From NCBI GenBank assembly GCA_964187785.1, contig OZ076411.1:31558001-31622000 (forward strand): 64,000 bases of DNA. The letters are read 5' to 3'. The translations under genes were made by a program, and so were the position numbers. The stretch is from Amphiscolops sp. MND2022. Lineage: Eukaryota. Under the pieces are notes generated by a model. That model was given only the letters and a program-made list of their open reading frames with translations. It was not told the origin of the DNA and searched no databases. Shown here in pieces: positions 7,285 to 38,521 of the stretch; position 1 is the first letter of the stretch; every line of letters begins with the position of its first letter.

Positions 7285-8607
7285 GGAATCAACTTCCTGC
7301 CGATTTCCAGTTCCGCGTCATTTTCTTCCTCATCTCCCGCCTTTCCTAGATGCCGCGTCAAAGTTGGAACTGAAATTCATGAATCTAGCAACTGAAGCGG
7401 GAAAAGGAAATGAAGTGTTCCTCGATAAAAACCAAACATACAACGAAATGAATTACCGAACTGCACTTAATAAAGGATTTACATTTAAATAAATTTCAAT
7501 CGTCGACATAAGTTCAAACAACTAATAAATTGAACGAAATTGGCAAGGTAAACTCTGGTCGTAAGCTAGGCGTTCACACATGATTGACAACATTTGGACA
7601 GTTGATCATAGTGATGACTTGACGCAAATCATTGCGGGGGGTTGAATAAATATAATGAACAGCAACAATCAGCGGATATGAATTGAACATCATCCAAGAT
7701 TCATAATTCAGTTAATAACCTAATCTGTTCCACTCATGACACGAGCAAACGGAAAATTACTTAAAGCTTTCATGTTTGTCTTCCTGGTGGTTGACCCAAA
7801 TTGAACTTCATGTGATCTCGTTTTACAGCTTCAAATTACGTCGGGAGTATAAGGATTATATCTAATTTAACACTCTATCACACAATAGGTAGAATTGACA
7901 ACACATCAATGGCGTCATTCACTTATTTTGACAAGTAGGTGATCCCGACTGCCGACCTAGACAAGGTTTTCTGCCGGTTGTCTGGGTCGGTAACTCCATT
8001 TTGAAAACAACAACTTTACAAACATAGTTTTATTTCATCAATAATATCATTCCCTTGGACCACTTCCAGTGTTCTTTTCTGGAAGAAGCTTCTCTTAAGC
8101 CCTGTATTACTAATAGAATCACATTTGGCATCGTTTAATTGCAATCACAATCACGCATCAAATACTTCGGTCGATCGATCGAGCGTGCATCCCAGCTTTC
8201 TTGGCTTGTTTGCTGCCTGAGAGGTTGTCTCAGTTTAGTTAGCGTAAGTGCGCTCGACGCTGTTTGGTTATTGGTTGCGAACAAATGAAACTAGTCGCTA
8301 TCGGCCGCTGTTGTTGAGGCAGCTTTCCGGTCGAAGCGCTAGCTGCGTTGAATCCAGTCAACGCGCTGGCTACTTGACTGTAAACAAATTACTGCACCTA
8401 ATATTATATAGGTATATACATATGTATGTATTTCAGGTACGGCACAATATTGTTATGATCAATAATAGTTTATTATATAATATTTAATCATGTCAATAAC
8501 TTTTTGCTGGTTGTTTTACCTTTCAGGTTTTATGGTGATTTTTCAGTCTTTCCCTGGTCATCTCCGTTTTTATCCTCTGACGTTCCTCTTATATTTAGAG
8601 TCTCGCA
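7285..8607 (-). repeat. 3' LTR of element 1 (left boundary uncertain)
   Basis: Alignable with 18660-19971 at roughly 75-80% by eye. Homology stops where the minus strand begins TGCGAGACTC (8607) versus TGCCAGACTC (19971). Confidence 0.7.
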
Positions 8608-9050
8608 TCGCAGTGCCTGCTGCGACAGATCCCGCTTTTCTTGAGGTGCGTCCATTATTGGAGGAGGTGGAGAAAATGGCCTGAAGGGTGATGATATAGA
8701 TGGTCGAAAGACAAACTGTATCCTTGAGTCATATGGCATCTAAGGTGAGTCGGTCGTACAGTCGCTGCCGGAAAAATAACTAATTGAGCTTGAGTTGCTA
8801 AAGACTGGGCTAATCGTTCCATCATCAGCGCTGTATAGCCAGCAGGCCATGTGGCCGTAATTTCGAGGTGGGCTCATAATTGTATCGTCTGGGATCACTG
8901 GATTACTTAATGAAAAGCGACGAATGGCCGGCTGGTCTTCTTGTGCTGTGTGAAGTAGTGATACGTTTGCTACATCATGGTGCAACACAAAATGGCCTTC
9001 GTCCGTCTTGACAACTTCGTAAAGATTTTCAAATACTGGTAGTTCTTCTG
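8530..9050 (-). pseudogene. Sense-strand 3' ORF of element 1, reading into the 3' LTR
   Basis: ORFs 8740-8988 and 8530-8739. PPPIMDAPQEKRDLS resembles PPLQSAPVLRDLT in the 3' ORF of element 2. Confidence 0.45.
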
Positions 9051-9450
9051 CATCGGTAATTTTCGGTGTTGATTGTGCTTTAGGTAAGTGTCTTGATCGC
9101 TATCCAATAGAAAACAATCGCTAGATAAATTGAGTTCTGGTGACAGCATTCTTTAATTCCGGTAGAGTGAATACTTATAACAAAAATTGGAGTGGATTAG
9201 ACGACTGCTCAAGGTATAATTAAATGTTCAAGTAATGATTTCTACTCCTTTAATGGTGTTCACGCCGCTTGCGTTATTGGGAAAGTTTTCAGCTGGCAGA
9301 CCGAATGACTTCCATTAAATCATATTAATAATCAGTGTCGAGGGATGCCCTAGTGCCGATCCTGGGCCTTCCAGTAAATTTAAAAGGTATCCGTTTTATT
9401 GAGATCCAACAGGGTTCGAGGGTCATAATCGTGAGTGTGCTTTTCATGTT

Positions 9451-11700
9451 TTGTGTGTCCCCCTGTTCTTCTATGCCGCAATTTGTTCGCTGATTTTGGG
9501 CGAGTGTTCCGATGGCGACGTTATGAAACATTTGGCGGAGGATAAATCGACAAGTGTTGCTGAGGCAAGTACTTCTCCAGCGATCGATACCCGGCACGAA
9601 CGCACACAGCATGCCCGACCTGCAGAAAAATTGGAGCTTTCTGTGCTCCAGAATGGGTGAGAAAAGACTTGGTGTTTTTGTTTTTTTTCTCTGAGCTATA
9701 AGAAAAATTCCTTCGTTGTGGTGCATGATTCTGGATTTGGTTGCTGTGTTATCTTTGTTGTGAACCGTCAATATCCGGTGGTTTTTCATTTCAGCTGGGT
9801 TGACCGATGTCCCGAGTGGTGTTGTGTGCATGTCGTCCTTGCAGGTTCTTGCCTATGGTCAAGCTGCTGTTCGTCTTGAGCAGAGTCATTTACAACGTGA
9901 GGAAAGTTCCCTGTCACGATGTAAGTGTATATTGCTGGTTGTTGAAATTGGTTTTGTATCTTCCTTTGGTTCGTACAGATTTGGGTTCGCGATTGTTCTA
10001 TTCGTATCGTTGAGTGATTGTGCTTTGACTGTTTTGTTTCGTGGTGTTGTTTATGTTGTATGTGTCTCCATTTATTCTGTTCTAGGCATTGAAGAGATGT
10101 TGGGCAAAATCAAGAGAAAAAGGATCCATATGCATTGAGCTCGGTCCCAAGATGATGTCATTGAGAATGCCAAGAGGAAACTTTATGCGACTTATGAAGC
10201 GAAGAGACGTCGACAGTCGGGGCGCCATGTTCTGAGGATGGAGCTGGCTGATCCCGCGATTCCTCGTTCATTTGTGAGCCGACGCAATGACAAAGTCCCA
10301 AATGGATTCAATTGTGCGATCTGTCACAAGAATGTATTCTTCATGAGTCGGGGCGAGCCCGAGATTTGGCGCTGCTTCGAGAGTAAAAGACACTTCGTGT
10401 CCGGCAGCGCGACCTTCCGTTTATTACTTTGGCAGCTGTGCTGGAAGAGATAGTTCGGCATTGGAGTGATATCAAATTGTCTACATCTCGGAGTAGAGTT
10501 CCGCAGGATTTAAGCCAAATGATCTTGACTGATGCTCGTATTTTGCCCTGTTTGTGTGTGTTACATGTTGTGCTTTTCTGCTTCCAAGCGAATTTTGCAA
10601 AACAGTTTGTGCCTGAGATCACTGACAGCAGTTGACGGAATTCTACTGAATTTTCCTTCTTCTTTTCTTTTTTTGCGGTTCGGTCGGCAAAAATAAAAAA
10701 CTGTCGGAATTGCTCGAGGTTGACAGTTGATGTGAAAACATCGGCAAAAATGCTCACTACTTGGTCGGTCGTGTCTTATGTGGACGGTCTGAGGACCGAG
10801 CCCATCTTCGTTACTGCTTTGGCTCGTTACAGTGAGCCCAACTGTCGGGAGTTCTTGAAGACCCAGAATGGCACTGTTTTTTGAATTCTTGCCTGGCCTC
10901 AATTTTGAGGTGTTTCTCCCCTGATGTGATCTTGCAAGGAAACGAGGCTTATACTTTGGAGTTGTTCAAGGTCTTTTGGCATGCAATCAGTAGAGTGAGC
11001 GGCTGAATGCTTTGGAAGCGGAAGGGGCGAGCAATGAGTTCGAATCTTTCCTTCTCGAAGTGCGACGTCGGAATCCTCAGGTAGTGTTGTCGATCAAAGA
11101 CTGCTTCAGTTTTTTGCGTAAATAGGATGCCTTTACTTGTCAGGAACATTTGGCACGTGTCGCTCAGCTGTCTTCTGTTTTGGTGGTTCCGCTTGAAGTC
11201 ACTTGTCCTGATGTAGGAATTTCTTTGAGTGGAGTTGATGTACCTCATAAAGTTCTTACTTCTGCTATTTTGGCTGTTCCGTCAAATGTTTCGTTTCCCA
11301 GCGTCAGTTCCAAAGAGTTGCTGACAAAGGACTGCTTGGATGACCTAGAGGTGAATTTGCCCGGAGGGAGGTCATATACAGCATGCTAGTTTTTCGCATT
11401 GGTCGTCGTTGTATTGCGTTGATCATAGGGACCTGTATCGTGATTTACGAGGTCGTTTCGACGCTTGTTTTCGAAACATATGGACGACAGGCGTCACCGC
11501 ATGGGTACACTGTCTAAGCAGACTCTTGTTGGTTCCGGGGGATCGAGTGTTTCTCCGTCTGCTGGTAATGCTGTGGTCGGTTCAAAGAGTGGTTCCTCTT
11601 GTCCTGCAGTTGCTTTGAGTTCGCCACCGAACACGGCGCCTTCGGGCAGTGTTACTGCTTTCAATTAGTCAGATTTGTTGTTCGGTCCTGGCCGGTCCAG
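9451..11700 (+). pseudogene. Antisense spliced zinc-finger (hAT-transposase-like) cargo gene of element 1
   Basis: Phase-1 intron 9921-10085 (GTAAGT..TTCTAG). Finger region FNCAICHKNVFFMSRGEPEIWRCFESKRHF. C-terminal EFESFLLEVRRR..LARVAQLSSVLV..CPDVGISLSG aligns with the element 2 gene. Confidence 0.7.
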
Positions 11701-12199
11701 CGACTCAATTAATCAGATTTATTTTTCAGTCCTGGCCGGTCGAGCGACGTGACTCCCATGTTACAGGAGAGGCGGGAAGAACGAAAAGGAATTCCAGCTG
11801 TAAAGAAAACTGGGTCAAAAGCCCCCCAAAGTCGAAAGGAGGCAAGAGATGATGGTGACTTGGTTTTTTTCTGAGACATTGAACAGTTTAGACTTTACAC
11901 ATTGGTAGTTCTTCTGTTATATTCGTATTTGTGTGTAGGTTGATGATTGCTCTTTTATATATGGTTGATATGTGATTTCTTCTAGATTTGTTGGTAACCT
12001 TGTGACTTATTGAGTAAGATAAAACAAAGTCGAAATCTTGAAATGAAAAGAATCATGGCTCGTTTGAGAGTCTTGGCTCTTCTCAGCAAAACAATGGGTC
12101 ATTCATCGATATATTCTTTTGCTCCTCGAACTCACTTTCTCTTGAGTCGATAGTTGTGAAGTAGGGGAAGTGAGTTAGTCGTAGTAAAGAAAGTAAGTA

Positions 12200-14320
12200 G
12201 TCAAAAAGTGCCACATCACGAATTCATTGTAAGTGTTTATTCATGTATGTTGACAACCATTGGGTTGTAATAAGCGTAATAGCTTTTCCAATTTGAAATA
12301 GGGTTACTACCTAAGTTGTATTTTCCTTTCCGGGGGGAACTAGGTTACGGGTTTGGGTTGGGTTCTAGGTGTTGGACCTCATCGGTTGGGTAATTTTCTA
12401 CGGGGGTGTCCGGCGATTTGTCCTCGGTTGTGTTTTCTGAGCAGGTGATTTCGTCAAGGAGGGTAATTTCGGGTTCATCATTGGGGGGGTTGTTGTTTGA
12501 TATAACGAAGTGTTCGAACACTGATTGCCACGAAAGGGCATACAGATCGTCATTTAGGACTTCGACTTCGTTGTCTGGTTAGAAATCCTTCGCTTGGACT
12601 TGTATGTCGGGTAGGCGGTCTTTGGTTCTGTTGGTTTGTATCTTTCGTATCAGGTAATTATTGCTCGGTAGGGTTTCCACTACTATATACGGTCCCGTCC
12701 ACAAATACTCTCGAAATGGTAATTTTGATCCTTAGTCATTTGCTTGTGGGTGTAAGGCAATGCAGTACTCGTTTGCAGAGTATTTTTGATTCTTAGGTAT
12801 TTGCTTGTGGCTGTAAGACATAGCAGACATCCAGAGGGTGGGCCGAAGCTTTCCAGTCGTAATATTGCTAGTACCGCATATACAAGTGTAAAAGGTGCTT
12901 GATCACTGACTCATAGATTAGACGAGTTTTTTGGAGGAATTCTTTCCCCGTGTCGGTTGTTGGGTCTTTGTTGTGACTCTGTTCGATTCCAAATTTCAGA
13001 TCGAATACTTTGTAAGGTACTCTGCCGTGGAACACTCTACTGGTCTCACATCACAGAGTCGAATAGTATGTCGTTTTGTAGTTAAGCGTGGCGATGGGTA
13101 CAATTTGATGCCACATTGGTCGGTGTTCCCCTGTGGAAATTCTGAGTGCCTTTTTCAGCGATGCATGGCAACGTTCCAAGATGCCTTTTGTTTGTGCGTG
13201 CTTTCCTGTGGCTTTTCTCAGTTGTAGTCCCAAGACACGGAATGTGTCAGCCATTACTTCAGACATAAATTGGGTTCCTGTGTCTGTTATGATGGTTGTG
13301 GAGAGGTACGCTTGGCGCATCATAATGTCGACTAGCGCTTTTGCAATGGTCCTTGCATCTATTCTGGTGACACAGTATGTGAATAGATACCGTGAGAATA
13401 CATCCATGGCTGTGACTATAGCCGTGTATCCGTTTGATGGTTCACCGAACGGGACAATGACCATTCCTAAGGCATCTTCTTGTCCCATTGCGAGTTGGGA
13501 CGTAATAATAATTGGCGGGGTGAGTATTCGGTTGTCTGCTTGTTTCGTTCGCATGCATTTCTTGCATTGGCTAATGTGTTCGGTGATCATGGCCGCTAGA
13601 CTTGGGAAGTAAGACTTCTCCCGGCCTTGTTGTTGGTGATCCCACTTTGGTGATCCCAGGATGTTTGTCGTTCATCCCGTGGTGGTCCTAAAGTAAGGAG
13701 TTGACCAGGTGTTCTGGGAAGAGCAGCTGCAAGTGTTTACGTTCCCAGTTTCCCCGTAGTACTGCCGGAATAGCAGTCCCTCATAAGGGATAATTCGTGA
13801 CTCTTGAGAGGTATACTAGTGTGCTCTCTGGTTCGTGGTCATCATTTGCTCATCGTATGGTTCCTTTAGTAGGCGTAGTTTGTAGTTCCGCAGAACGTTG
13901 TCTTGATCTTGTTGGTGCCTCATGTCAGAGGTTAGTGTGACGTTGTCGCGTTCGTCGCCTTCGGTGCGTCTGATTATTTCTGTTTGAAGTAAAATAGTCT
14001 CATTTTCAGCATTGGTTTGTTGTTGTTTGGTTCTTCTCCTGGCATTGTGGGGGTGTCGCTTCTCAGGGCTTTTTTCTTTGCTCGCTTTTTTCTTTCCCAA
14101 ATGTGTTCTTCCGTCTCGGTTGCATCATCTGGGAGGATGTAAAAATGTTCCTCTTCGGCAACATTGGATGACTGGATGTGGACCTCGATATGTGATGTTT
14201 GAATGTCCTAATGAGGAGTTGTACCTTCTGTTTAGGCTTGGGTTCGAGTCTGGACAGAAAGTCTGTGGCAGAGTTCATACGGCCGGGGACGTCTGCTTTA
14301 GTAAAATTGAACTGTAGGAC
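12200..14320 (-). pseudogene. Gypsy integrase of element 1 (frameshifted)
   Basis: ORF 13051-13590 has CKKC (end of the HHCC finger), MDVFSRYL, IITDTGTQF and GILERCH (DDE core). Confidence 0.9.
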
Positions 14321-14329
14321 GAAACCACA

Positions 14330-16310
14330 TGCTTTCCTCAGCGCTGGAGATGATCTTCGTCTGCAAAAATCTCGTCACAGATTTGTTGTCGGTCAGGACG
14401 ATGACTTGTTTGGCCGATCATCACAGAATGTGGCTATACTCCATGAAGGCGAAGTATATTGCCAGGAACTATTTGGCATATAATAACATTTTGTTATGGG
14501 ATGGCGAGAAGGTTTTGGAACCGAAGGCTACCGGGGTGTATGTCTTCTTGACTGAGGTCAGTTTCTCGTCGGCATTCTCCTCGATCATGAGGGCGTAGCC
14601 GGCGTTCTTTGCATCGGGCATATTTATACATACTGCTTGTTGGGTAGGGGTTGTTTCAACCATAGTCCGCAAGCGTTGTCCAGTGATTAGTTGATAATCT
14701 TGAAATTGACCAGGATGTCGTTGTGACGGCTTGTCGGCTTTGACCAGTTAGTAGAATGGGGCGAATTTTTCGGACAATCTAGGAATGTAATTCCTGTAAT
14801 AATTCAAAAACCCGGTGTAACTTTGGGTCCTTTTTTGTTTTGGGGAACGACAGTTTCCGGTGGTAGTTTTGTATTATGTGGGTTTGAAGTGCGATTCTTT
14901 CTGGTGACACAGTTCGTCCAAGGAATTCGACTTCCTTGGCACCGCACTGGCACATGGCCATTGTTAGACGCAGACCTGCTTCTCTGACGCACTGGAAGAC
15001 CGCACGCAGGTTGATCTTCAGCTCCTCGGCGGTGAGGGTGGTCCGTTTTTTTCCTGCCAAGTTTTGGGACGCATCAGAGAGGGTACTCACGGGGTGGTTA
15101 ATGTTTATATAGTTGTCGGAGATGAGATTGTTTATCTTTCTCAAGTCGACAAGCGGTCGGAGGCGACCGTTTGGTTTTCTATGCGTAAATATTGGACTCG
15201 CGTATTTACTGAACAGGACAGTGGTGATGTTACCGAAGTATTGCATCAATGCCAACTCTACAGTCAGGTCGTCTTGCTAAGATATCGTTTTACTCAAGGG
15301 GTATGTCATCCATGTCAGATTTGTCTTTTTCATTCAATTGAAAGTCTTTTCATCTGAAGTTCGGGGAGAAGGATTTCCTCTCCTCTGGCTGTTTTGGAGG
15401 AGTTTTTGGATGGATTCTAATTTCTCAATTTCCCGTAGAATGCGGCTTTGGATGGTGGTTTGGGTTGCAGTGTCGCCCGGGTAGTTAGGTGTGTGAAACC
15501 AGAAATTGTGGACGGTTTGTGGCTTTCCGGAAGATTTGAGGAGTTCATTGACATACTCCAGTGCCTAGTCGAAACTGTCGCCTGCCAGAACTTTGAGAGC
15601 CGCTGAGTTTAGTGGGTGCAGATTTTTTGCATCCTGGGGGGATAGAATAAACAATTAGGCGACTGTTGCGATCTTTCTTCGTGTGAATGGGTTTGGTGAG
15701 GTGTTGGTGGCTCGGAATTCACTTTTGAAGATCGAGGCTCTTGATATGAAACTGGCCACTACACCTTGGTTGTCTCTTGAATATTGTTTTGTTGGATGGC
15801 TCGTACCGGTGGTATTGGCGACGGTACGTAGGTGAAAGCCTGCTTCGATTGTAACACATTTATCGGGCATGATCGTTATATGATTCCTTAGTGACTTTAT
15901 GGTTCCTGGAGACAGCCTCGTTATCATCTGCTGTGAGTTCGTACGTCCAGTGGAGAAAATGTAGCAACGCTTGACTGACGTCCGAAAAGGCGATGTTGTT
16001 TTTAAAAAACGTTAGTTCAAGGATGCGGCATCTGATCTTAGTGGCAACTGTAAAGGTTTCTTTGATGGTCCAATCCTTTTTTTCTAACTGAAGCTGAACA
16101 GTTTTGTTGGAGTTTCTTTGTCGCCATTTGCGACTTGAAGTTTGAATGTCGATGGGTCCATCTCCTTGATTAATCTACGAGTGCTGATAGATTTGATTTT
16201 TTCGAGTTCTCCGGGAGTCAATTGACTAATACTCCTGAATCAATGAGGGCGTACAGGGACAGGCACTTGAAGACCATCGGTGCAAAGAGCAATTTTTTTC
16301 TTCTTCAATG
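14330..16310 (-). pseudogene. Gypsy protease, RT and RNase H of element 1; RT catalytic core deleted
   Basis: Protease ALIDSG near 16240. RT fragment YASPIFTHRKPNGRLRPLVDLRKIN..LAGKK|RTTLTAEELK lacks the YVDD segment. RNase H fragment DA..AGYALMIEE..PVAFGSK at 14469-14672. Confidence 0.85.
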
Positions 16311-16399
16311 TTATTGCTTAAAAATTGGTATGCATTTTTGGTTTGAGGTTAAGCATGTGATAGCGATTTCGTTGAGTTGTTGATTGGTGTAAATCCAAT

Positions 16400-17962
16400 C
16401 TTCGTCTTTGCTTTTTGCGATGAGGTGGGTGGTTGTATTTGCTCAATTGCGCGTGTGTCGTTTTGTTTGTGATTAGTTGAGTTGTGTGGTTTAGTTCACA
16501 CGTGAGAGCTCGTTTGATTCGGCGGATACGTGGTGTTGCTGGTGCTTGTGTTTGTTCTAGGCGGTCCTCGTTTTTCGTCCTTAGGTGTTTCTTAATTGTA
16601 TTTGTGTTCGGGACTGTCTAGGCTGGATGCGGACGACGTCATGGCTTATGAGCTCGTTCCTTGTGGCTGCGAGCTTCTGGGGTGACTGGAAACCAGTCAT
16701 TGATGGGTTGGTGTTGAAGTTGAGAATTGATTTGATGCTCTTTGGTGGTGGTGTTACGAGCACTGTTATTTCGGTGTCGTGTTTTTCATTAGCCTGATGT
16801 ACGGTAGCAAGACTTGTGTCGTCTTTGTGTCTCCCAGATTTGGAGAGATTCATGTTAGTTGGTTTGGTGAATCCGTGGAAAGGCACGTTCATGGTTTATT
16901 TGAAAATGAGTTGTTCAGCGTCGTAGATTGTAGGATTGTGATACGGGTCACAGTCGAAGTCAGGGTCGTAGATGTAGGTGTGAGTAAGAGGGGTCTTCTG
17001 GTGGAGTGGAAGAGGGTGGGGTTTTTGACATACCCGTAGCGAAGTCTTTAGTCTCGTGGCTCATTTTGCGACATGTTTCGCCGAAGTTGTTATTGTGGAA
17101 CTATCTGTTTTTTGCAATTGTTTATCGCGGTTTGTTTTCCTGCATTTACGGGGGAGGTGGCCTGTGTGGCCACATCCAAGCTTGGGCCTCTAACCTTTTG
17201 TGGCCGTTATTGATTCGTGTTGGGTTCTTGTCCGACAATATTGATGTCCGTGAGTGAAGTTGTGTCTGGATTTTCGAGTTCATTCAGTTCCATTTCTCTT
17301 TCGAGATGCTGGACCATTGTTTGGTAGGAGGAAGTTTCTAGGTGAGCTTGTTTGAGGACGATTTTTGAAAAAATTGACATTTTGGCATAGAATGACTTTT
17401 TTTAATATTCTGTGTGCTTCTTCTCCGTAAGCATCCTGGGCTATGTTCTGATTTTACTCCAGAAAAGCGGGGAAAGTTTGCTGGATGGGGTTAGAGGACA
17501 AAGCGCTGTTGCTATGGTTTGTTGCTTGACGTATCTGCGACGAAAACCCGCAAGTATGTCATCAAATTGACTTCGTGTCGCTTCCATCATATTTCTAAGC
17601 GTCTGGAGTGCCTCGCCCCTGAGTAACGAGTGGAATAAGTGGATTTTCTCCCCCTCTATGATATTCAGGTATACCTTGAGACTGGTTCGGAAAAGATCCT
17701 CAAAGTGCTTGAACTTGTCTGTTTTGCCGTCAATGTTAGGCATTGTTGTGGACATGGCTTTGGGTAATCTCGGGATGCCCGAGTTTTGATGTGTTGCCGT
17801 TTGCAACGATTGTAAGAGTTTTCCTATAATATCTTGTGGGTAACTCTGGTTTTGAGGTGGCAGACTCGAAGATCGTTGTGTTGTGAGTTGTGTGTTGTCG
17901 GGGTTGCCGAAACTTCTGTCACCATGTTGTAGCTTAGGTTGTTTGGGAGTTGTTTTCGACAA
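16400..17962 (-). pseudogene. gag of element 1
   Basis: ORF 17441-17962 (LPKAMSTTMPNIDGKTDKFKHFEDLFRTSLK..HLFHSLLRGEALQT) is homologous to gag of element 2. Confidence 0.85.
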
Positions 17963-18659
17963 TTTCCTCTTGAGTATTTTGATTTTGCTCGACCCTAACA
18001 GCCGAACACACCTGTTCGGACGAGGTCCTGGACACGTTATCTACCTTGGAGGATAGGTTTTCAATCAATCTCAAAATCTCTCTTTGCCCAAATTCCACGT
18101 TTTTGATCTTGTTCGAGATGTCTTCAAAATTCTGTTATGACAGTCGGATATTCTCATTGTTAGATAAACTCACTACATCTACATCTGAGTGGTTACTCGA
18201 AGGATCACTTATAAGTTTACCCTTTTGAGTTTTTTCCTGCAAAGTTTGAGTGGAAAACAGGTCCAGGTAACAGTTCAATTATACTGAACGAGTGATTCTT
18301 TAAAACCCGGATACACTTCAGTCCGACAACTGGTAGGGTGCAGGTTTAAACAACAGTGTTACAAACGAGTCAAGGGAATCAATCGAAACAGGAAATTCGA
18401 AGCGGGGAAAAGTGAGATTTGTCAATAAAATGCACTTAACAAATTCGAGTTTACGAGTGACTTGGAAATTAACTTTGTGCCCTTCCCTAATCCCGCTTCA
18501 GGTTTTTATACTTCATACTTTATGCTAGACACACAGGGAAAACACCGCGCGTGAGTCCACACCATGTTCTACTCGACGTACTTCGCAAAGCGGAAAATCC
18601 GAAAAAGGTAAGCTTGCTCGGGACTCGGCATTCGGCTTCATCCCACTTCCACAGAAAAG

Positions 18660-19971
18660 TGAGAATCAACTTCATGCCGTTTCCCACTTCCGCGTCCTTT
18701 TCTTCTTCATCATCTCCCGCCTTCTCAAGACGTTGAGTCAACGTTGGCACTGAAATTCATGAATTTAGCTCCTGAAGCGGGAAAAGGAAATGAAGTTTAC
18801 CTCGATAAAAATGAACATTTACAACGAAGTGAATTATAGAACTGCACTTTAAAAAACGTCGACATTAGTTCAAACATTTAGTAATTTGAATGAGAATGGC
18901 AAGGTAAACTCTGATCGCCAGCCAGGCGTTCATACATGACTGACAAAGTTCGGACAGTTGACCAGAGTGATGACTCAAATCAATCGTGGGGGATTTGAAT
19001 ATTAATATTGAACAGCAACAATCAAATATGAAATAAACATCTTTCAAGATTCATAATTGAGTTAATTACATGAACTAATCCACTTATGACACGAGCAAAC
19101 GGAAACTTTCTTCACGATTACATGTTATTCGTCCTTGTGATTGACCCAAATTGAACTTCATGTGTTCTTGTTTTACAGCTTCAAGTTACATAGGGACTAT
19201 TAGGAATATATCTAATTCAACACTTTAACACAAAAAGATGGATAACTAGTAATTAACAACACATCAATGCGGTCATTCACTTATATTGACACTTAGGTGA
19301 TCCTGGCTGCCGACCTAGACAGAAGAGTTTCTGTCGGTTGCCTGGGTTGATGACTCACTTTTGAAAACATCAATTTTGCAATCATAGTATTAAATCATCT
19401 GTAATATCAATCCCTTGGTTCACTTTCAGTGTTCTTTTCTGGAATAAGCTTTTCTTAAGCCCTGTATTATTATTAGAATCATGTTTGGCAACGACGTTTA
19501 GTTGCAACCACGCATCAGATATATCGGTCGATCGACTGAGCGTGCGCCCGAGCTCTGCTTGACAGGATTGCTGCCTGAAAGGTTGTCTCAGGTTAGTTAG
19601 CGTAAGCGCGCTCGACGCTGATTTGTTAATAGTTACGAACAAAAGAAACTAGTTGCTGTCGGCCGCTGTTGTTGAGGCAGCTTTCTAGTCGACGCGCTAG
19701 CTGAGTTGACTTCAGTCAACCCGCTGGCTTTTTGACTGTAAACAAACTACTGCACTTAATAATATATAAGTATATACATATGTATGTATTTCACATACTG
19801 CACAATGGTGTTATGATCAATAATTCAACATTTATGTTATATTTTATTCATGTCAAAAATTGTTTGCTGGTTGTTCTCCCTCTCAGAATTCAGGGTGATT
19901 TTTCAGTCTTTCCCTGGTCATCTTCACTTTCTTCCTCTGGTGGTCGGTTTTCTTATATTTAGAGTCTGGCA
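18660..19971 (-). repeat. 5' LTR of element 1 (left boundary not resolved, may extend to ~18140-18500)
   Basis: Direct repeat of 7285-8607, located upstream of gag. Confidence 0.7.
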
Positions 19972-22900
19972 GCACTGTGGGGGCTGCAACAAAATGCTTT
20001 ACAGAGGTCAAAAATAACTCCCCAGAAGTCTCTCTTTTAGTTTGCTTTCTCACGTGATTTGGAAAGAAAGTAGCAGAAATTTTCAGTAGGGAAAGTACCA
20101 GGAAATATCACCTTTTTCCTTAAAGGTTCGTGAAACAATCCAATCGTCCCTTGAATGAAAGAATAAAAACGCATGTACAAAATTGGATAACAGAACTGTT
20201 GATCTTGGAAGAAAACGATAGCAGCTAGATTTATCCTTGCAAAAAAATGAATGAATTATCGCAATTACATTGAGATCAGAAATATTAGAAGTTGATTAGT
20301 TTTCAATCCAGACCAACTTGTAAATAGGTCTCGAACTCCTTTATTTGTTTTAATATCTAAATCATTGCGATGTTTGGGCATTTTCTCTATTGTATTGCAT
20401 CTTTTCTCTTTTATTCTGTTGTTACTGACCTCGCTTAGGTCGTAGCAGTAGTGGAAAGAGTGCCCAAGAACATGGGGTCAACAATCAAGAAATGCTCGGA
20501 AACACTGACTGAGGTTACAAAAAATGGAGGGCAGGAAAAGAACTTATATGTGTTAGGTGTATACATTCCGAATTGGTTTCCTCTTTCTCTTTTTTTATCG
20601 TTGCTATAACTTGTAGACACTTATCCTAATGACTGTTCGTTGAATTAAGAACTAGAAAAAATAGAAATATCACGTATGAATCACCTTCATTGAAAAATAA
20701 AATTAAATGATTACGAAAAATTGAATCACAACAATGGCTACCCCTGAAAAAGAGATTAGACGAAAAACGGTACTGTTGCTCAACTGGTACAAATGACACA
20801 GGTAAGGATCAGGCGATGTTCTAGAGTTTTGTTGGTGTCAATAGGCCATTTTGACAATTTTTTGGCTGGTCTATTGATTCAACCATATGTTCTCTTGAGT
20901 CTCCTGGGTCGCACGACTCCCTCCGTCCTCTGAAACTTTTTGTCGTCCCTTACCATTGGCCACAACCTATCGTTTTGGGCGCAACCCATCGTTTTGGCCG
21001 CAACCCATCGTGGGTTAGGATGTGAGGTTGTTGCGAGGGGTCGTAACTAACCCGTTATGCTACAATCAATTAACAACAACTGAACTCGGTTTCCATTAGT
21101 CTTCTCAGAAAAACATTTGTAAATTCAAACTAGAAGAATTAGTCAAATTAACCTAAAAGTTTTCCAATATTTGACACTTCCGGTGACGTTATGTGCAATT
21201 GTAAAACAATCCAGAACCGGCCCAGGTTGGCGCCCCGCTCGAGATTCTTAAACTTACAAAAGACACTAGTTTCAAACTATCACTTGTGTTCTCATGGCGA
21301 AAGGTTACTGCAAGAAACATGCCTGAGATTCCGAAATCACTTTTTCCCCAAACGAAAAACAAAAAACCGTTTTTCGATTTTTTTCCGAAAATTCCCATGA
21401 TGTCGATAAAACTTTCAGATGTCAAAACTACTTTTTCTCGAGCCCAAAACAGCTTTGAAAGTGAGGGGTAACCGACGACTAGATGAAAGTTTAGGTTTGA
21501 TTTCTCTTCTATCCTGTTCACCTGGTCTTCTGGAGAGTAAGATCTCTTTTTCCAGTCTTTTGTGCCATTTCTTTCTCTCCACTATTTTGTTTGTTTGTTT
21601 CGGGTGAGTTGTCCTGTCTATTGATGATCTTCAGAAATTCGTCATCAGCACCCCATTGGTATTTTAGTGTGGAATCGCAGGTGTTTTTGGCAGGATAGCA
21701 ACAAGTTTTGTCCGGATTTTGTCGGTTGTTATTGTTATCGCTGTCCTTTTTCGTTTGTCGGTAGGTATCGCAATGTGTAATAATGGCAGTCTGATAAGGG
21801 GTCAAAGTTGAGTAATAATGGTTTTTAATTGTTTTGCGGCAGCGCGTACCAATCTGCACGAGCGTATCAATCATGTCGGCGGTTTCTTTATTTTCGCGCT
21901 TTCTGATTGTTCAAATATACGACCAATGCGACAATTTACCATCACTAGCTGCGTGATGGTGTTGATGACAAATTTTTTTTCGTAAGTTTCTTCCGGTTCC
22001 GCGTTTTCTGTCGGGTTGCGGCTAATGGAATCAGTGAATTTGATTTCGTCACCGGCAGTGTATTCCAAAGTAATGTCGAATTGGTTTAATCCGTCTAGCC
22101 ACCGTGTTAAACGGGCACTATACTGTTTATATTTGTTTTATTCTTTTTCAGTAATGGTTCCAGAGCTTGGTGATTGGAGAATAGCTGTACTTGTTTTCCG
22201 TATAAGTGAAATCTAAAACGTTCAGACCCCAAACTACGGGCAATAGTTACAATTCGCCGATGGAATACTATTTTCCGCATCATTTAAGTATCGGCTAGCG
22301 AAAGCAATAGGTTTCAGGTCGCCGTTGGTTTGATTTTGCCATAGTGCTATTCCGTGGCCGGTTTTGCTAGCGTCCGTGGTGACTATTTTCTCTGTATTTC
22401 CGTTGTAGTGTGCAAGACATGGTTGTGTGGTAAGTTCTCTCTTTAGGTTGTTGAAATTCGTATTTCGTTCCTCCGTCCATTCCCAGTTTGTTCCTTTTGT
22501 CATTACTTGCCGTCTTTTCTGAAATGTTTGGAATGAATATTGCGAAGTATTGTATTAGTCCAAGGAAGGATTTCAATGTCTTCGTGTTTGCTGGTGCTTC
22601 TAAGTTGTTGATTGCTTCTGTCTTTTCTCTATTTGGTCTGATGCTGTCCTGTGAGATTGTGTGTCCCAGCCAGATGATTTCTTTTTTGATAGACCTTTGA
22701 TTTCTTTTTACTAGCTCTGTAACCTTCGTTTTTCAATTTTGTTAGGACTGATTCTTATTTTTGAGTGTGTTGTTTTTTCGCGTGTTACAGTTATTATGTA
22801 ATCAAGCCATATTGGTGTTTTGTGGCCGAATGTTCGGTCTCTTTTCTCTTGCGAATAGTTGGCTCGTCCGGAAAATCCCTTTAGGAAGCAGGTGTATCCG

Positions 22901-27679: not shown

Positions 27680-28066
27680 GTGGTTTGGTTTGAGCGCAAT
27701 TTTGATCAAAAAATTCAAGGAGTCAGTGTGAAGCTTGAAAACCCTGGATTTCGCATACATCAAACTGAGAATTGCGAAAGCTCTAAGTTGAGAAATGAAT
27801 GTCTCAAAAGTTTCAATCAAAAAAACAATGAGAAACTAAACATGGTTCCAAGCATTTTTCAAACAAAACTATTTTGCCATAAATTTCTAAAAGTTGATGC
27901 CAATTTTGGTTCAAGCTGCATCCATATGAAGCATTACTATATGCTGATAGAACGAGAAGGGCAGTGGCGCTGTGATATGTGTCTTAATCCTCATCACTAC
28001 TCTGAGGCTCAAATGAGTTTTCATTATTGTGATGATCCTGATTGTTACGACTATTCACCGGTGTAA
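27680..28066 (+). CDS. Short ORF with a C-terminal Cys/His cluster, cut by a gag fragment
   Basis: RCDMCLNPHH..FHYCDDPDC. Its last codons are shared with the antisense gag junction (gactattcaccggtgtaa). Confidence 0.3.
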   Translation: MVWFERNFDQKIQGVSVKLENPGFRIHQTENCESSKLRNECLKSFNQKNNEKLNMVPSIFQTKLFCHKFLKVDANFGSSCIHMKHYYMLIEREGQWRCDMCLNPHHYSEAQMSFHYCDDPDCYDYSPV

Positions 28067-28560
28067 TTTTATGAGTAGTCGTAGTAGTTTTGGTTTTAAT
28101 CGGAGTTGAGGTTGCATTTTCCGGACCGTTTTCGGATTCGGAGTCTGTTTCTTCAGAAGCTGTTATGACGGTTTGTTTTCTAGACGCAGGGCTATTAGTT
28201 TTAACATTTCCTTTTGGTTTTCAGCTAGGATTTTAGTAAGATCAGACATTATCTCTTTCCTCAGAGAGGATTTGATTTCCTCTAGATTTTTGGTGAGTAC
28301 TCTAGGAGAGTTGTTCGTTCCCGCTACGGGGTTTAAGTTCTGGCTAGACTCAGGTATTGGGGTTTCAATTTCAGTGGAAACTAGCTCCTCTACAGCTTTT
28401 CTTTTCTGGCTTCTAGTAGTCATTTTCAGAAACAGAGGGGAGTTGTTCTTTGGAAATTCTGAAATCTTCAAAAAAATTTGCTTTTACAAACGAAGTATAA
28501 ACGTAGCAGGAAAAGTATTGATTGATTCTTACAAATCCCTAAGTATATATATCTTCGCAG
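28048..28560 (-). pseudogene. Truncated gag 5' end plus leader of the second, head-to-tail copy of element 2
   Basis: MTTRSQKRKAVEELVSTEIETPIPESSQNLNPVAG.. is near-identical to gag at 44645-44130. Confidence 0.9.
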
Positions 28561-28605
28561 CATCAATTCCTAGGAATCCTTAAAATCGGTTTTGTTCACC
28601 AAAAA

Positions 28606-30111
28606 TGCTTAATCATCCTTATTATTTCAACCCTTCAATTAATTGTTCACAATTTAAAATTCCTAGTCACGGCTCCCTTACGGAGTACTTGTTGAAATCA
28701 TTTTTGTTCATCAAAATCATTCCCGGTTTGATCACGGAAAAGGTGGTAAAATGAAAATCTAGCTGAACTTCCATCAAGAAAGGCACGCGGGCGTGATCAA
28801 TGATTCATCTCGAAACTAGTGAAAATCACCTGTTCGCGGTCAAAGCAAAATTGACAACGGAAATATTTCGAAGTGATTTTGGATTCGTGCAATGAAATTT
28901 TTGAAAAAGGGACAAATGATGCTGGAAAGTGGTCAATACAGATCAAAGATTGAAGTAACAAATAACACGGCACAATACCGTTCTAAACTAATTTTACATG
29001 TGTTGAGACATATTGTCTAGATCATTCAGCTCAATGAATATAACGTAGTAAACATACAAAACACCTTTCCAAAATGAAGGAAAGCCCCTTTTATTTGAAC
29101 ACTTCCTCTGTTTTAACCTGCAGCACGATAATTTTAATCATTTACAAAACGGTGGCAATTCGGGAAAACATGATATAAACATTGCGAATTTCCCTACAAC
29201 TCGAATTAGTTCCGTATGACTTGGAGAATGTTTTGGTATATTGAAATAATCTCAATCTCGTAAATCTTTCCGAGTTTATTCCTTACGTATTAACATTAAG
29301 CATAACTTCATCATTTTACAATCTGCCTCGTAAGCTCCCCATACGTATTAAGATTAGGTATAGCAGGCTCGCATTACAGTTTGCTCCGTAAGCGCTCTGT
29401 ACGTATTAAGATTAGGTATAGCAGGCTCGCTGCAAACGGAGCTAGAACGGAGTATTAAGCCATTCTTAAATCATTCTTAGTGACGTCACCCGAATAATTC
29501 TCACTAGCTTGAGCGTAAATATGCTGGTTTTATCTGTAACGCTATTGGCCCTTAAAATTAGAAATACCGGCATATTGTTTATTTGAGCGACGCTACCATA
29601 CCGTTGCGAGAGCTTACTTAAATCAGTCAACTGCAATTTAAGTGGGTTTTTGCAGCTACTTCACTTATTGGAAACAATTCCATTATGCTGTTTTGTGTTC
29701 TTTTCATTTTAGATTGTATGAGTTCTGTTGGGATCGTGGAATTAAATGAAGTTTTTGATGTTTTCTTTTCAGTGTGGAAAAAAATGATCCCGGCGTTAAG
29801 ATTTTATTGTTTAGATTCGTATGGAATTTTCAGCAGACAAAACCGGAAGTTATAGAACGGTCGCTTATGAAAACTTTATACCGGAAATTCCGTTTTGTCT
29901 AAAGAACACTTTTGGATATTTTACGCAGCGCTTCCGTTAGAAACAATTTCCTTTTGTTTTGATATCAGTTCGTGCCACATTTTAAGCAAAGGTAAGTAAT
30001 CAGTTAAAGTTTTTACTTAATGTTGTGTGGTCCTGCCATGTCCTCGCCCTCTTGCAAATTTCGGTATTCCCCCACAACAGGAAAAATCCCGACCGGGGGC
30101 GGGTGGTGACA
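28606..30111 (-). repeat. LTR-A copy 1 (1506 bp)
   Basis: Minus strand TGTCACCACC..ATTAAGCA, followed by TTTTTGGTGAAC and gag. Confidence 0.85.
29329..29430. promoter_or_regulatory. Direct repeat with 58-bp period inside the LTR (enhancer-like), with a CRE-like TGACGTCA at 29481
   Basis: cgtaag..tacgtattaagattaggtatagcaggctcgc occurs twice in every LTR copy. TGACGTCA is conserved in A and B copies. Confidence 0.5.
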
Positions 30112-30556
30112 GGGCGCCTCTATAGCCTCTTGACCACGGCCTGGGGCAATGCGGGATTTCTCTAGTAATAAGCACGGGCTGCTTGCGCGTTCTTGTAAGT
30201 TTGGCAGACGTGTAGCGGGTTCCGCGGCCACACAGCGGGCTGTACTTCGGGCTGTCCTGCAAACTGATTCCGTATGCCTTTTGGTTTTCAGCTAGGATTT
30301 TAGTAAGATCAGACATTATCTCTTTCCTCAGAGAGGATTTGATTTCCTCTAGATTTTTGGTGAGTACTCTAGGAGAGTTGTTCGTTCCCGCTACGGGGTT
30401 TAAGTTCTGGCTAGACTCAGGTATTGGGGTTTCAATTTCAGTGGAAACTAGCTCCTCTACAGCTTTTCTTTTCTGGCTTCTAGTAGTCATTTTCAGAAAC
30501 AGAGGGGAGTTGTTCTTTGGAAATTCTGAAATCTTCAAAAAAATTTGCTTTTGCAA
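30017..30556 (-). pseudogene. Chimeric ORF: gag N-terminus fused to the tail of the 3' ORF by a duplication junction
   Basis: ..ILAENQK|AYGISLQDSP.. with cctttt microhomology at ~30280. Confidence 0.8.
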
Positions 30557-30672
30557 ACGAAGTATAAACGTAGCAGGAAAAGTATTGATTGATTCTTACA
30601 AATCCCTAAGTATATATATCTTCGCAGCATCAATTCCTAGGAATCCTTAAAATCGGTTTTGTTCACCAAAAA

Positions 30673-33301
30673 TGCTTAATCATCCTTATTAATTCAACCC
30701 TTCAATTAATTGTTCACAATTTAAAATTCCTAGTCACGGCTCCCTTACGGAGTACTTGTTGAAATCATTTTTGTTCATCAAAATCATTCCCGGTTTGATC
30801 ACGGAAAAGGTGGTAAAATAAAAATCTAGCTGAACTTCCATCAAGCAAGGCACGCGGGCGTGATCAATGATTCATCTCGAAACTAGTGAAAATCACCTGT
30901 TCGCGGCAAAAGAATGACAAGCAAAATTGACAACGGAAATATTTCGAAGTGATTTTGGATTCGTGCAATGAAATTTTTGAAAAAGGGACAAATGATGCTG
31001 GAAAGTGGTCAATACAGATCAAAGATTGAAGTAACAAATAACACGGCACAATACCGTTCTAAACTAATTTTACATGTGTTGAGACATATTGTCTAGATCA
31101 TTCAGCTCAATGAATATAACGTAGTAAACATACAAAACACCCTTTCCAAAATGAAGGAAAGCCCCTTTTATTTGAACACTTCCTCTGTTTTAACCTGCAG
31201 CACGATTATTTAATCATTTACAAAACGGTGGCAATTCGGGAAAACATGATATAAACATTGCGAATTTCCCTACAACTCGAATTAGTTCCGTATGACTTGG
31301 AGAATGTTTTGGTATATTAAAATAATCTCAATCTCGTAAATCTTTCCGAGTTTATTCCTTACGTATTAACATTAAGCATAACTTCATCATTTTACAATCT
31401 GCCTCGTAAGCTCCCCATACGTATTAAGATTAGGTATAGCAGGCTCGCATTACAGTTTGCTCCGTAAGCGCTCTGTACGTATTAAGATTAGGTATAGCAG
31501 GCTCGCTGCAAACGGAGCTAGAACGGAGTATTAAGCCATTCTTAAATCATTCTTAGTGACGTCACCCGAATAATTCTCACTAGCTTGAGCGTAAATATGC
31601 TGGTTTTATCTGTAACGCTATTGGCCCTTAAAATTAGAAATACCGGCATATTGTTTATTTGAGCGACGCTACCATACCGTTGCGAGAGCTTACTTAAATC
31701 AGTCAACTGCAATTTAAGTGGGTTTTTGCAGCTACTTCACTTATTGGAAACAATTCCATTATGCTGTTTTGTGTTCTTTTCATTTTAGATTGTATGAGTT
31801 CTGTTGGGATCGTGGAATTAAATGAAGTTTTTGATGTTTTCATTTCAGTGTGGAAAAAAATGATCCCAGCGTTAAGATTTTGTTGTTTAGATTCGTATGG
31901 AATTTTCAGCAGACAAAACCGGAAGTTATAGAACGGTCGCTTATGAAAACTTTCATCAAGCAAGGCACGCGGGCGTGATCAATGATTCATCTCGAAACTA
32001 GTGAAAATCACCTGTTCGCGGCAAAAGAATGACAAGCAAAATTGACAACGGAAATATTTCGAAGTGATTTTGGATTCGTGCAATGAAATTTTTGAAAAAG
32101 GGACAAATGATGCTGGAAAGTGGTCAATACAGATCAAAGATTGAAGTAACAAATAACACGGCACAATACCGTTCTAAACTAATTTTACATGTGTTGAGAC
32201 ATATTGTCTAGATCATTCAGCTCAATGAATATAACGTAGTAAACATACAAAACACCCTTTCCAAAATGAAGGAAAGCCCCTTTTATTTGAACACTTCCTC
32301 TGTTTTAACCTGCAGCACGATTATTTAATCATTTACAAAACGGTGGCAATTCGGGAAAACATGATATAAACATTGCGAATTTCCCTACAACTCGAATTAG
32401 TTCCGTATGACTTGGAGAATGTTTTGGTATATTAAAATAATCTCAATCTCGTAAATCTTTCCGAGTTTATTCCTTACGTATTAACATTAAGCATAACTTC
32501 ATCATTTTACAATCTGCCTCGTAAGCTCCCCATACGTATTAAGATTAGGTATAGCAGGCTCGCATTACAGTTTGCTCCGTAAGCGCTCTGTACGTATTAA
32601 GATTAGGTATAGCAGGCTCGCTGCAAAGGGAGCTAGAACGGAGTATTAAGCCATTCTTAAATCATTCTTAGTGACGTCACCCGAATAATTCTCACTAGCT
32701 TGAGCGTAAATATGCTGGTTTTATCTGTAACGCTATTGGCCCTTAAAATTAGAAATACCGGCATATTGTTTATTTGAGCGACGCTACCATACCGTTGCGA
32801 GAGCTTACTTAAATCAGTCAACTGCAATTTAAGTGGGTTTTTGCAGCTACTTCACTTATTGGAAACAATTCCATTATGCTGTTTTGTGTTCTTTTCATTT
32901 TAGATTGTATGAGTTCTGTTGGGATCGTGGAATTAAATGAAGTTTTTGATGTTTTCATTTCAGTGTGGAAAAAAATGATCCCAGCGTTAAGATTTTGTTG
33001 TTTAGATTCGTATGGAATTTTCAGCAGACAAAACCGGAAGTTATAGAACGGTCGCTTATGAAAACTTTATACCGGAAATTCCGTTTTGTCTAAAGAACAC
33101 TTTTGGATATTTTACGCAGCGCTTCCGTTAGAAAAAATTTCCTTTTGTTTTGATATCAGTTCGTGCCACATTTTAAGCAAAGGTAAGTAATCAGTTAAAG
33201 TTTTTACTTAATGTTGTGTGGTCCTGCCATGTCCTCGCCCTCTTGCAAATTTCGGTATTCCCCACAACAGGAAAAATCCCGACCGGGGGCGGGTGGTGAC
33301 A
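30673..33301 (-). repeat. LTR-A copy 2 (3' LTR of element 2) with an internal 1115-bp tandem duplication
   Basis: 30839-31953 is repeated from 31954. Termini as in LTR-A1. Confidence 0.85.
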
Positions 33302-34007
33302 GGGCGCCTCTATAGCCTCTTGACCACGGCCTGGGGCAATGCGGGATTTCTCTAGTAATAAGCACGGGCTGCTTGCGCGTTCTTGTAAGTTTGGCAGACG
33401 TGTAGCGGGTTCCGCGGCCACACAGCGGGCTGTACTTCGGGCTGTCCTGCAAACTGATTCCGTATGCCTTTTCTATTTCGTCTATAGGGGGCTCCATTAA
33501 ATCGTCAAGACGATCAATTTTCGTTGGTGGCTCGTTGGATAAATGTTCGTCGTTGGTTAAGTCTCGTAGGACCGGTGCACTTTGCAGCGGGGGTAACTGC
33601 CGCAGGGTTTCCAGTTCTTCGTAATACCTCTCTTCTAAGTTTTCAGCTGTTTGTCCCTCCACTGTAAACACTTCTCCGGGGCTTGACGTTCCTAATTGTT
33701 TTTTTCTGGGGGAGCCTATTGTCTCAAACGTTAAGGCAGATATATTTGATAAGTTGAGTTCATTGATGGAGGACATCAATTCTTCTGCACTCCCTTTGGT
33801 AGCTTCTAGGGAAGATCCGGACAGGTCTAACGTAGTTATTACGTTGACTGGAGCTACTTTAATTGGGTTACTTCGTCTCCCCATAGTTCTTTGTTCTTCT
33901 TCATCCGATGAGATGTCGATGATAAGGGCATAGTTGTCCATTCTGTTTAATTCGAATTCTGAAGTAGATCTTTTGAACAAATTTTCTTTACGTTTTTTGT
34001 ACGGCAA
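33204..34007 (-). CDS. Sense 3' ORF of element 2 (267 aa, acidic and S/P-rich), overlapping the first ~100 bp of the 3' LTR
   Basis: ORF track. Frame fragments continue upstream to ~34500. The final frame depends on a C-run (4 C here, 5 C in the other copies). Confidence 0.5.
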   Translation of the reverse strand: MPYKKRKENLFKRSTSEFELNRMDNYALIIDISSDEEEQRTMGRRSNPIKVAPVNVITTLDLSGSSLEATKGSAEELMSSINELNLSNISALTFETIGSPRKKQLGTSSPGEVFTVEGQTAENLEERYYEELETLRQLPPLQSAPVLRDLTNDEHLSNEPPTKIDRLDDLMEPPIDEIEKAYGISLQDSPKYSPLCGRGTRYTSAKLTRTRKQPVLITREIPHCPRPWSRGYRGALSPPAPGRDFSCCGEYRNLQEGEDMAGPHNIK

Positions 34008-34559
34008 ATGAAGAGGTCAATTCTCTTCCGTTCATGTTTTCCTGTATTTCTATTGGCTGATACTTTCCTTTTCTTTCGGTTCGTTTTATCTTCGGAAAAC
34101 GTTTCGCTTCAATCAGTGCTATGATTGGCTGAACCGCAGAAATAAAGTTTCTAGATTTGAATTTCATCATGGCGTCGTCAATTTCTTCCCGAGAATGATC
34201 CGTATGACGTCATGTGTTTGAAAATCGCTTTTTCCTTTTTCTTCTTAGGTTTCAAGCTGATCTGATTTATTTTTGAATTTCTCTGAAATCGATGAGCTTT
34301 CGTTATTGTAGATTTGCGTAGTTTGTGGAATGAATTTTTCCTTGTTTCAGATCATTCTGGAGATTCCTTCATAGTGCTTTTCTGGATGGATGAAGAAAAT
34401 GAACTTCCTACTGTTCCGTCGCTGGCTTCCTTAGTGGGAACGAAACAGTTTTCAATTATACTGATGAAGATGTACGCTCAGAGACGGTGTTTGTTCGTGC
34501 TGTTTCAGGTTGGTAAAAATCTTTTCTGACTTCCATGGGTAACTGGACTATTTATTTTT

Positions 34560-38300: not shown

Positions 38301-38521
38301 AGAAGCTCTAGGCGGTTGTTGTGTTGATGTAATTTTTTTGATACTGTATTGTGTTTCTTCCTTTCTTGCCCAGTATCATTTGTTTTGTTTTATTTAGTTA
38401 GTTTTTTCAGAAATGACTATTCTAGTGAAAAAAAATTGACGTTGCCACTCCGGTTCGGTTTTGTTCACTAATTGTTTTTGTTTAGTTTTGAGATTGAGAA
38501 CTTTCTTCTGTAGTGATTGCG

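Follow-up and report, generated by a model that had tools for sequence, protein, structure and literature searches.

Antisense cargo genes with a predicted hAT-like transposase fold in two LTR retrotransposons of Amphiscolops sp. MND2022

Open reading frames (ORFs) lying antisense between pol and the 3′ LTR have been described in plant gypsy elements and in one fungal element (PMC7264820), with the same source stating that their origin and role are unknown and naming transposable element insertion as a possible origin, which the lack of similarity was said not to support (PMC7264820). In Retand the domain of such ORFs is named transposase 28, its role being given as unknown (PMC11963269), and a sense ORF of sunflower Athila is reported to match Transposase_32 (PMC11728184), such that transposase-labelled extra ORFs have precedent. 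Two further papers deal, between them, with non-coding antisense transcripts of Copia elements and with nested insertions that have become fixed in giant DNA transposons. The hAT transposase Hermes requires D180, D248, R318, W319 and E572 (PMC6027215), its finger is described as reading short repeats in its own ends (PMC10368747), and hAT proteins domesticated by hosts are described as transcription regulators (PMC3606216).

Within the window, the whole 64-kb stretch of DNA that was analysed, two LTR retrotransposons (elements 1 and 2) lie on the minus strand with the gene order gag, protease (PR), reverse transcriptase (RT), RNase H (RH) and integrase (IN). Each carries a further gene, here termed the cargo, on the plus strand, in the interval that separates the 3′ end of pol from the left (3′) LTR, such that an antisense cargo is present in 2/2 of the pol-bearing elements in the window. 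On balance, and by no wide measure, we favour the reading that an ancestor of these retrotransposons acquired a hAT-like gene in a single capture event and retained it as an accessory factor that binds DNA without cutting it.

Both elements have the features of Ty3/gypsy-type retrotransposons, namely two LTRs, a primer-binding site, a purine tract and the gag-PR-RT-RH-IN series. The H2C2 integrase finger and YVDD motif favour assignment to this type, with the gag matching DUF1759 (Pfam), which occurs in BEL/Pao also. The 3′ LTR of element 1 (7286..8627, minus strand) lacks its left part, starts with TGT on the minus strand and has a purine-rich tract just inside; the gag-pol region (12300..17911, minus strand) is disrupted by stops and frameshifts and is followed by the primer-binding site TGGTGACAGAAGT (17912..17924, minus strand) and the 5′ LTR (17925..19991, minus strand). 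Element 2 as a whole occupies 28043..46214 (minus strand) and is flanked by the 5-base target-site duplication CTGAT at 28038-28042 and 46215-46219. Its primer-binding site TGGTGACAGGAGT (44107-44119) agrees with that of element 1 at 12/13 bases, and the pol tails of the two elements end in a related motif. The LTR pair is 83.9% identical over 1318 bases in element 1 (K2P 0.18) and 93.5% identical over the 1343 bases compared in element 2, with transversions about equal to transitions in both pairs (118 vs 94; 41 vs 46), reflecting either little CpG-type decay or sequencing error. Between elements the LTRs gave no alignment, the local scores of 30 and 25 standing against a shuffle maximum of 29 (60 shuffles), in keeping with their description by the sequence-only reading as not alignable.

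Several other features of the window were observed. The left end of element 2 (28043-33472) contains several tandem copies of LTR parts that are 98-99.8% identical, and its right end (45184-47796) a 1306-base tandem duplication within which the CTGAT flank is repeated; these multiplied ends are the product of unequal recombination or an assembly artefact. A 58-base tandem pair in the LTR of element 2 (32507-32621 and copies) may serve as a binding site for a factor that the element encodes. The gag-like frame of element 2 apparently starts inside the 5′ LTR and reads through the primer-binding site (44120-44498), and the start of the frame in element 1 (17925-18040) resembles it in degraded form. 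Left of element 1 there is a tandem repeat family of ~104 bases (5188-6906). Outside both elements lie an ORF at 49173-50159 (minus strand) with a weak P2RX7_C match (E 0.027), one of 763 residues at 51057-53348 (plus strand) with no Pfam match and one with 60-base repeats at 25291-27306 (plus strand), directly upstream of which is a 148-base inverted repeat (24967-25114).

The two cargo genes had been proposed to be homologous copies at one position and on one strand, with finger regions and C-termini that align, and each of these points was upheld. Both genes are antisense in the interval from pol to the 3′ LTR, the finger regions are identical at 18/53 positions with a score of 71, above all 1000 shuffles (maximum 50), and the C-terminal regions at 27/119 with a score of 67, likewise above all 1000 shuffles (maximum 49). 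The remnant of the middle region is identical at 7/26 positions, with a score matched by 3/1000 shuffles. Direct comparison of five further pairs of pieces was not significant, these including the short exon and the helix on either side of the intron discussed below, 10636-10875 and the tail. The 3′ ORF that had served as a landmark occupies the same position in both elements; the two 3′ ORFs share no similarity (best E 0.11), making the landmark a positional one only. These sense-strand ORFs before the 3′ LTR stand head to head with the cargo (8740-9099 in element 1; 33204-34016 in element 2), that of element 2 running into the LTR and having no Pfam match. ATGGCG occurs at the likely 5′ end of each cargo gene (9512 and 34169 in elements 1 and 2, respectively). 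The spacer of element 2 holds two matches to ATTGGCTGA, which we take to be a CCAAT-box, at 34052 and 34124, 72 bases apart, with ATTGGCTG occurring 4 times in the window, and this spacer is possibly a two-way promoter.

The cargo of element 1, which had been presented as a second, divergent copy of the gene, is homologous but broken by a deletion of ~278 codons, by stops and by frameshifts. Its candidate upstream exon (9403..9656, plus strand; possible starts at 9512 or 9524) is drawn from splice signals only and is a weak assignment, being mismatched in phase to the next exon. The candidate intron that follows (intron A, GTGAGA...TTTCAG; 9657..9794, plus strand) would have a phase-1 acceptor, and in element 2, too, a phase-1 intron (35166-35268) precedes the short exon. 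The short exon has 126 bases in element 1 (9795..9920, plus strand) and 114 in element 2, the sequences being unalignable between copies, and leads to phase-1 intron B (GTAAGT...TTCTAG; 9921..10085, plus strand), the counterpart of which lies at 35383-35496. The next segment (10086..10399, plus strand) encodes a helix, a basic linker and the zinc finger, matches residues 33-136 of the relative P0222 and contains a stop at 10136; in its finger the Cys residues are at 10313 and 10322 and a third Cys replaces the family's first His. The match to P0222 as a whole covers residues 3-136, the first 32 being intron read-through, and jumps to residue 415 at 10399, where a deletion junction with a change of frame (10397..10401, plus strand) marks the loss of P0222 residues 137-414, and with them of the helical domain and the entire RNase-H-like core.

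Beyond the junction lie a remnant of the helical insertion region (10399..10970, plus strand; P0222 residues 415-615), without introns and with a stop at 10633 and a frameshift at ~10876, and the C-terminal region (10967..11528, plus strand; P0222 residues 615-790), with stops at 10994 and 11123 and frameshifts at ~10967 and ~11377. The Ser/Gly-rich basic tail (11529..11874, plus strand) includes a 44-base tandem duplication (11661-11748), resembles the tails of relatives as judged by eye and closes with a stop at 11872-11874, such that the cargo continues to ~11874 and not to 11700, where the sequence-only reading had ended it. This copy is a pseudogene, a dead relic. It contains ~4 stops in 400 codons vs 5 in 444 columns of the integrase, a stop density like that of its own integrase which indicates that it decayed along with its element. 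The cargo of element 2 (34169..38311, plus strand; 5′ end uncertain), with introns at 35166-35268, 35383-35496, 36072-36186, 36807-36917 and 37000-37124 (plus strand), is broken too, by a stop at 37572 and several frameshifts.

Relatives of the cargo are numerous. The finger exon of element 2 gave 191 matches among 1.84 billion representatives, 150 of these being listed, and among the matches listed P0222 is an uninterrupted open frame of 890 residues. Searches with three exons gave 4, 92 and 78 clusters, all from one source class and with no named proteins or Pfam domains among them; the 92 clusters, one being the window's own, represent 865 sequences, with 23 clusters having at least 10 members and clusters of the family reaching 93 near-identical members. 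Pfam comparison of 8 cargo pieces from the window and 28 cargo-family proteins returned nothing significant. Two candidate relatives, the repeat protein P0219 and P0242 (7904 residues), were set aside as probable chance matches. Across the whole family, location inside LTR elements was established for the two window copies only, scans of metagenome, prokaryote genome and viral contigs having found none of the relatives' surrounding DNA. In the finger-exon tree (30 rows, with element 1 covering just 34% of columns) element 1 grouped with P0201, P0222, P0213 and P0232 (support 98/93) and element 2 fell in a separate clade (100/99), and in the C-terminal tree (32 rows selected from 94) element 1 paired with P0222 on a long branch. 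The proposal that the gene was kept over a long time is supported at the level of the family, which retains conserved columns across 35-75% identity, but not for the element 1 copy, the decay of which resembles that of the pol of its element.

That the two copies lie at far ends of the family bears on an alternative in which a single capture and inactivation was followed by movement of the cassette between LTR families by recombination (template switching), an unlikely course of events in our estimation. Such a swap would account for the unrelated 3′ ORFs and LTRs that flank the two genes, for a cargo divergence equal to or greater than that of gag and protease (23-34% vs 24-37%) and for a cargo that diverges more than RT and RH (46-74%, in short pieces). 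The faster genes of the elements nevertheless diverge over a range that takes in the cargo, and position, orientation and primer-binding site are the same, both being observations with which a swap is compatible too. The strictly vertical inheritance put forward by the sequence-only reading is one possible sequel to a single capture.

The cargo protein very probably descends from a hAT-like transposase, as judged from its predicted fold. Two AlphaFold models of P0222 were obtained, from 63 and 65 sequences, the N-terminal plus middle (A5) and middle plus C-terminal (A6) parts being folded separately and an alignment of all exon fragments being dropped on account of misaligned C-terminal fragments. 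The models (mean pLDDT 62 and 60; pTM 0.42 and 0.36; residues 60-480 mostly at 70-98 in the first) contain a zinc-finger region, a helical domain, an RNase-H-class core (273-360) and a long helical region. Core strands are predicted at 273-279, 283-292 and 295-305 and, after a helix in each case, at 333-335 and 358-360, with a long helical stretch thereafter, such that in these models, modest as their scores are, the RNase-H-like core carries its long helical insertion after strand 5. For each of the two models the ten best Foldseek hits were Hermes transposase chains (lowest E 2.3e-7 and 3.7e-4), followed by ISCth4, a Mutator-like transposase (E 4e-4; 142 residues aligned). VIA-align placed model residues 216-489 onto Hermes 114-387, aligning 220-287 residues vs ~80 for generic matches, at a Z of 6.9-7.4 (rmsd 7.7-14.9) that is below 8 and tied with actin-like ATPase domains, and with TM-scores to Hermes below 0.3.

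Other comparisons delimit this resemblance. Atlas, given residues 34-800, pointed among others to the FAM200/ZBED5, DUF4371, DUF659 and hAT dimerisation families, with scores of 0.81-0.83 that fall short of the tool's threshold, and given the C-terminal exon alone to helical solenoids of the exportin type (scores of 0.91-0.92, with 141-152 features shared), not to hAT, leaving the hAT reading unsupported for that part of the protein. The C-terminal dimerisation region has no match to Pfam PF05699 and was modelled at pLDDT <50. Sequence profiles run against PDB sequences reached unrelated proteins (best E 0.048) and not Hermes. The finger pattern C-x2-C-x16-H-x5-H is conserved, its ligands being present in the family as Cys 27/28, Cys 28/29, His 31/31 and His 27/31, with no Pfam zf-BED match and weak C2H2 matches only.

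In the hAT core one catalytic Asp stands at the end of strand 1, the next comes after strand 4, and strand 5 is followed by a C-x-x-H motif. The corresponding positions of the cargo were placed by secondary structure and aligned ranges, without residue-level superposition, and at the putative first position, the end of strand 1, Asp occurs in 0/46 and Glu in 32/46 sequences, the Glu being absent from the element 1 lineage, which has Lys, Ser or Gln there. At the putative second position, after strand 4, Gly occurs in 66/72 and Asp in 3/72; the three relatives with Asp (P0281, P0299 and P0311) may show either a remnant or a later change. After strand 5 the family has F-x-x-E, without Cys or His, and the position matching Hermes W319 is Phe in 68/74 and Trp in none. 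The late segment has no invariant Glu, its best acid column holding Asp 55 and Glu 7 of 92, and with residues 650-733 modelled at low confidence the Glu position, placed by analogy only, is the least sure of these. Near-invariant acids are found elsewhere in the family (E314, E604 and D606). The Gly, the F-x-x-E and the Phe are common to P0222, of the element 1 lineage, and the element 2 copy, and the Phe and a late Pro-x-Val to both window copies. The catalytic residues, as placed on the models, have apparently been replaced alike in both lineages, and the same replacements across so deep a split suggest that the cargo was likely dead before the lineages parted, which argues against a double self-insertion.

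Around neither cargo gene were there the terminal inverted repeats (TIRs) and target-site duplications that would mark independent insertion of a DNA transposon and that the sequence-only reading had singled out as contrary to its proposal. A search for TIRs of at least 8 bases gave a best pair of 14/18 for the element 1 cargo, reached by 166/200 shuffles, and of 15/18 for the element 2 cargo, reached by 22/200 shuffles; old TIRs may have decayed in both. No TIR (10/12) with an 8-base duplication (7/8) was found around either gene, and a looser setting found 1 and 0, the chance expectation being 2.0 and 1.06. It is very unlikely on this evidence that a hAT-like (or non-autonomous) DNA transposon family with a preference for this region inserted twice, each time nested within an element, most relatives being free-standing, even with a cargo that is transposase-derived, intron sets that differ between copies and TIRs that may have been lost, above all in element 1. 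The imperfect 18-base inverted pair of element 2 (15/18, at 34170 and 38447), which might be read as the ends of such a transposon, was rejected as a TIR, being at chance level in the shuffles, lacking an 8-base duplication and having no counterpart in element 1. With catalytic replacements throughout the family the gene could not have moved itself, and the site and strand are identical in both elements. The earlier claim that the gene was not inserted twice by chance is supported, by shared site and orientation, the lack of TIRs and duplications, the same replacements and primer-binding sites alike at 12/13 bases. By these marks the cargo does not qualify as a hAT transposon; it resembles an antisense accessory gene and has a hAT-like predicted fold.

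A phase-1 GT-AG intron stands immediately before the finger exon in both copies (9921-10085 and 35383-35496), and had been taken for the same intron. Directly aligned, the flanks do no better than chance, the score of the flanking residues being matched by 328 and 292 of 1000 shuffles when the two copies are compared, and the copies differ by ~23 codons in the spacing of intron and finger. Among relatives, an acceptor-type signature (two residues expected from a phase-1 acceptor) was found before the same helix in 25 of the 43 finger-exon proteins with enough upstream sequence, vs 169/820 control windows, the pattern having been written after viewing the sequences and the controls being exon sequence. 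Several of the proteins that lack the signature had been called from a start lying behind the site. At the family level the equivalence of the phase-1 intron in the two copies so has good but not blind support, and the claim stands, by way of the relatives, for one intron and probably two, and not for the intron sets, which differ. In P0113 and P0307 the helix that would follow the phase-1 intron seems to be missing, and in P0113 perhaps the intron as well.

Further downstream, fragments of relatives end at P0222 residues ~250, 448 and 498, which are intron sites of element 2. The element 1 cargo is continuous across the sites of introns 36807-36917 and 37000-37124, a presence or absence with no outgroup to give its polarity. 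For the intron at 36072, 28 proteins match the motif before it, of which 24 continue into sequence resembling an intron and 3 read through, the remaining match being spurious; P0201 and P0232 read through the site also. The intron is missing only in the element 1 clade (support 98/93) and present in the surrounding groups, and with the read-through forms nested among intron-bearing groups its loss is the simpler reading.

Transduced genes lose introns. A gene domesticated for long would be expected to have a dead active site and introns in such number (five or more), and with the Atlas leads being ZBED/FAM200-type families the captured gene might have been a ZBED/FAM200-type host gene, already domesticated and then transduced by a retrotransposon. 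This is more improbable still, with no named or single-copy host relative among the matches listed, both window copies inside LTR elements, a multi-copy family, vertebrate ZBEDs described as mostly retaining the DDE triad (PMC3606216) and transduced genes described as usually sense and intronless (PMC7264820, for orientation), though a host paralogue may exist elsewhere. Least probable of all is a cargo that retains nuclease or recombinase activity through a rearrangement of its active site, or that came from another DDE superfamily (Mutator-like), as the Glu in 32/46 at the end of strand 1, the near-invariant E314, E604 and D606 and the structural matches to ISCth4 might suggest, since Gly stands after strand 4 in 66/72, the strand 1 Glu is absent from the element 1 lineage and Hermes surpasses ISCth4 in E-value and aligned length.

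On the preferred reading, one ancestral LTR element would have captured a hAT-like transposase gene, the active site of which was lost. The cargo being antisense, its introns would not be spliced from the genomic RNA and would survive each reverse transcription, persisting through every round. Transcription from a promoter of its own in the upstream spacer would yield a spliced mRNA and a nuclear protein of ~900-1100 residues with a basic tail. Having retained its finger but not its active site, the protein would bind DNA without cutting it, and it may bind the element's own LTR or internal repeats, so promoting transcription of the element or shielding it from silencing; a role as a DNA-binding accessory or regulatory factor is what we infer by analogy. 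The lineage of element 1 would later have lost three downstream introns, likely through recombination with a spliced copy. The fuller form of this reading holds that a single hAT transposon, nested in an LTR element long ago, was stripped of its ends and active site and turned into an antisense accessory gene of several exons, spliced and under selection across a radiation of LTR retrotransposons; in our judgement it is evenly poised between being right and wrong. If true, there would be hundreds of cargo copies in dozens of subfamilies, with lineage-specific intron loss in LTR retrotransposons.

A hAT-like fold would supply the similarity that has been missing for a nested transposable element origin of antisense ORFs, making this a concrete, testable case in which the kept finger predicts DNA binding, the replaced active site predicts no cutting and many natural copies exist. 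If the reading is true, one class of transposon has been domesticated by another, an antisense accessory ORF has a traced origin, and introns persist, and are lost by lineage, inside a retroelement. A literature search, with most subscription journals, Repbase and supplements outside its scope, found no hAT-derived gene described as retained by an LTR element and, among antisense accessory ORFs, no full hAT-like architecture with several introns, absence from print not being thereby established.

Compared with known systems, the cargo lies at the same place and in the same antisense orientation as maize Grande gene23 and the ORFs of rice RIRE2 and Retand TRP28/PF04195. For those plant ORFs too a nuclear or DNA-binding accessory role has been proposed, with Grande described as having its own promoter (PMC7264820, PMC11963269). 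It differs from them in having no TRP28 (PF04195) or other Pfam match, in its recognisable, predicted whole-transposase architecture and in the at least five introns of element 2, the main text of the Retand paper mentioning none (PMC11963269). With the hAT transposases (Hermes; PDB 8edg, 4d1q and 2bw3) it shares the predicted domain series, in which a finger is followed by a helical domain, an RNase-H-like core and a helical insertion. It departs from them in the replacements at its putative D, D, W and E positions, in having neither TIRs nor an 8-base duplication and in its place inside a retrotransposon, and its sequence identity in the structural alignments is 10-14%.

VANC of VANDAL (PMC11728184) and TnpA of Spm (bioRxiv 10.1101/2024.04.02.587720) are described as element-encoded factors acting on their own DNA; they belong to DNA transposons, and their likeness to the cargo is a functional analogy only. 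Like the domesticated hAT genes (ZBED1-6, ZBED5/Buster, FAM200 and GTF2IRD2-like; PMC3606216), the cargo is transposase-derived with its finger kept, and by analogy it may have a regulatory role. Those genes are described as single-copy host genes, of which the ZBEDs mostly keep the DDE triad (PMC3606216), whereas the cargo is multi-copy, its triad looks lost and its keeper is apparently another transposon.
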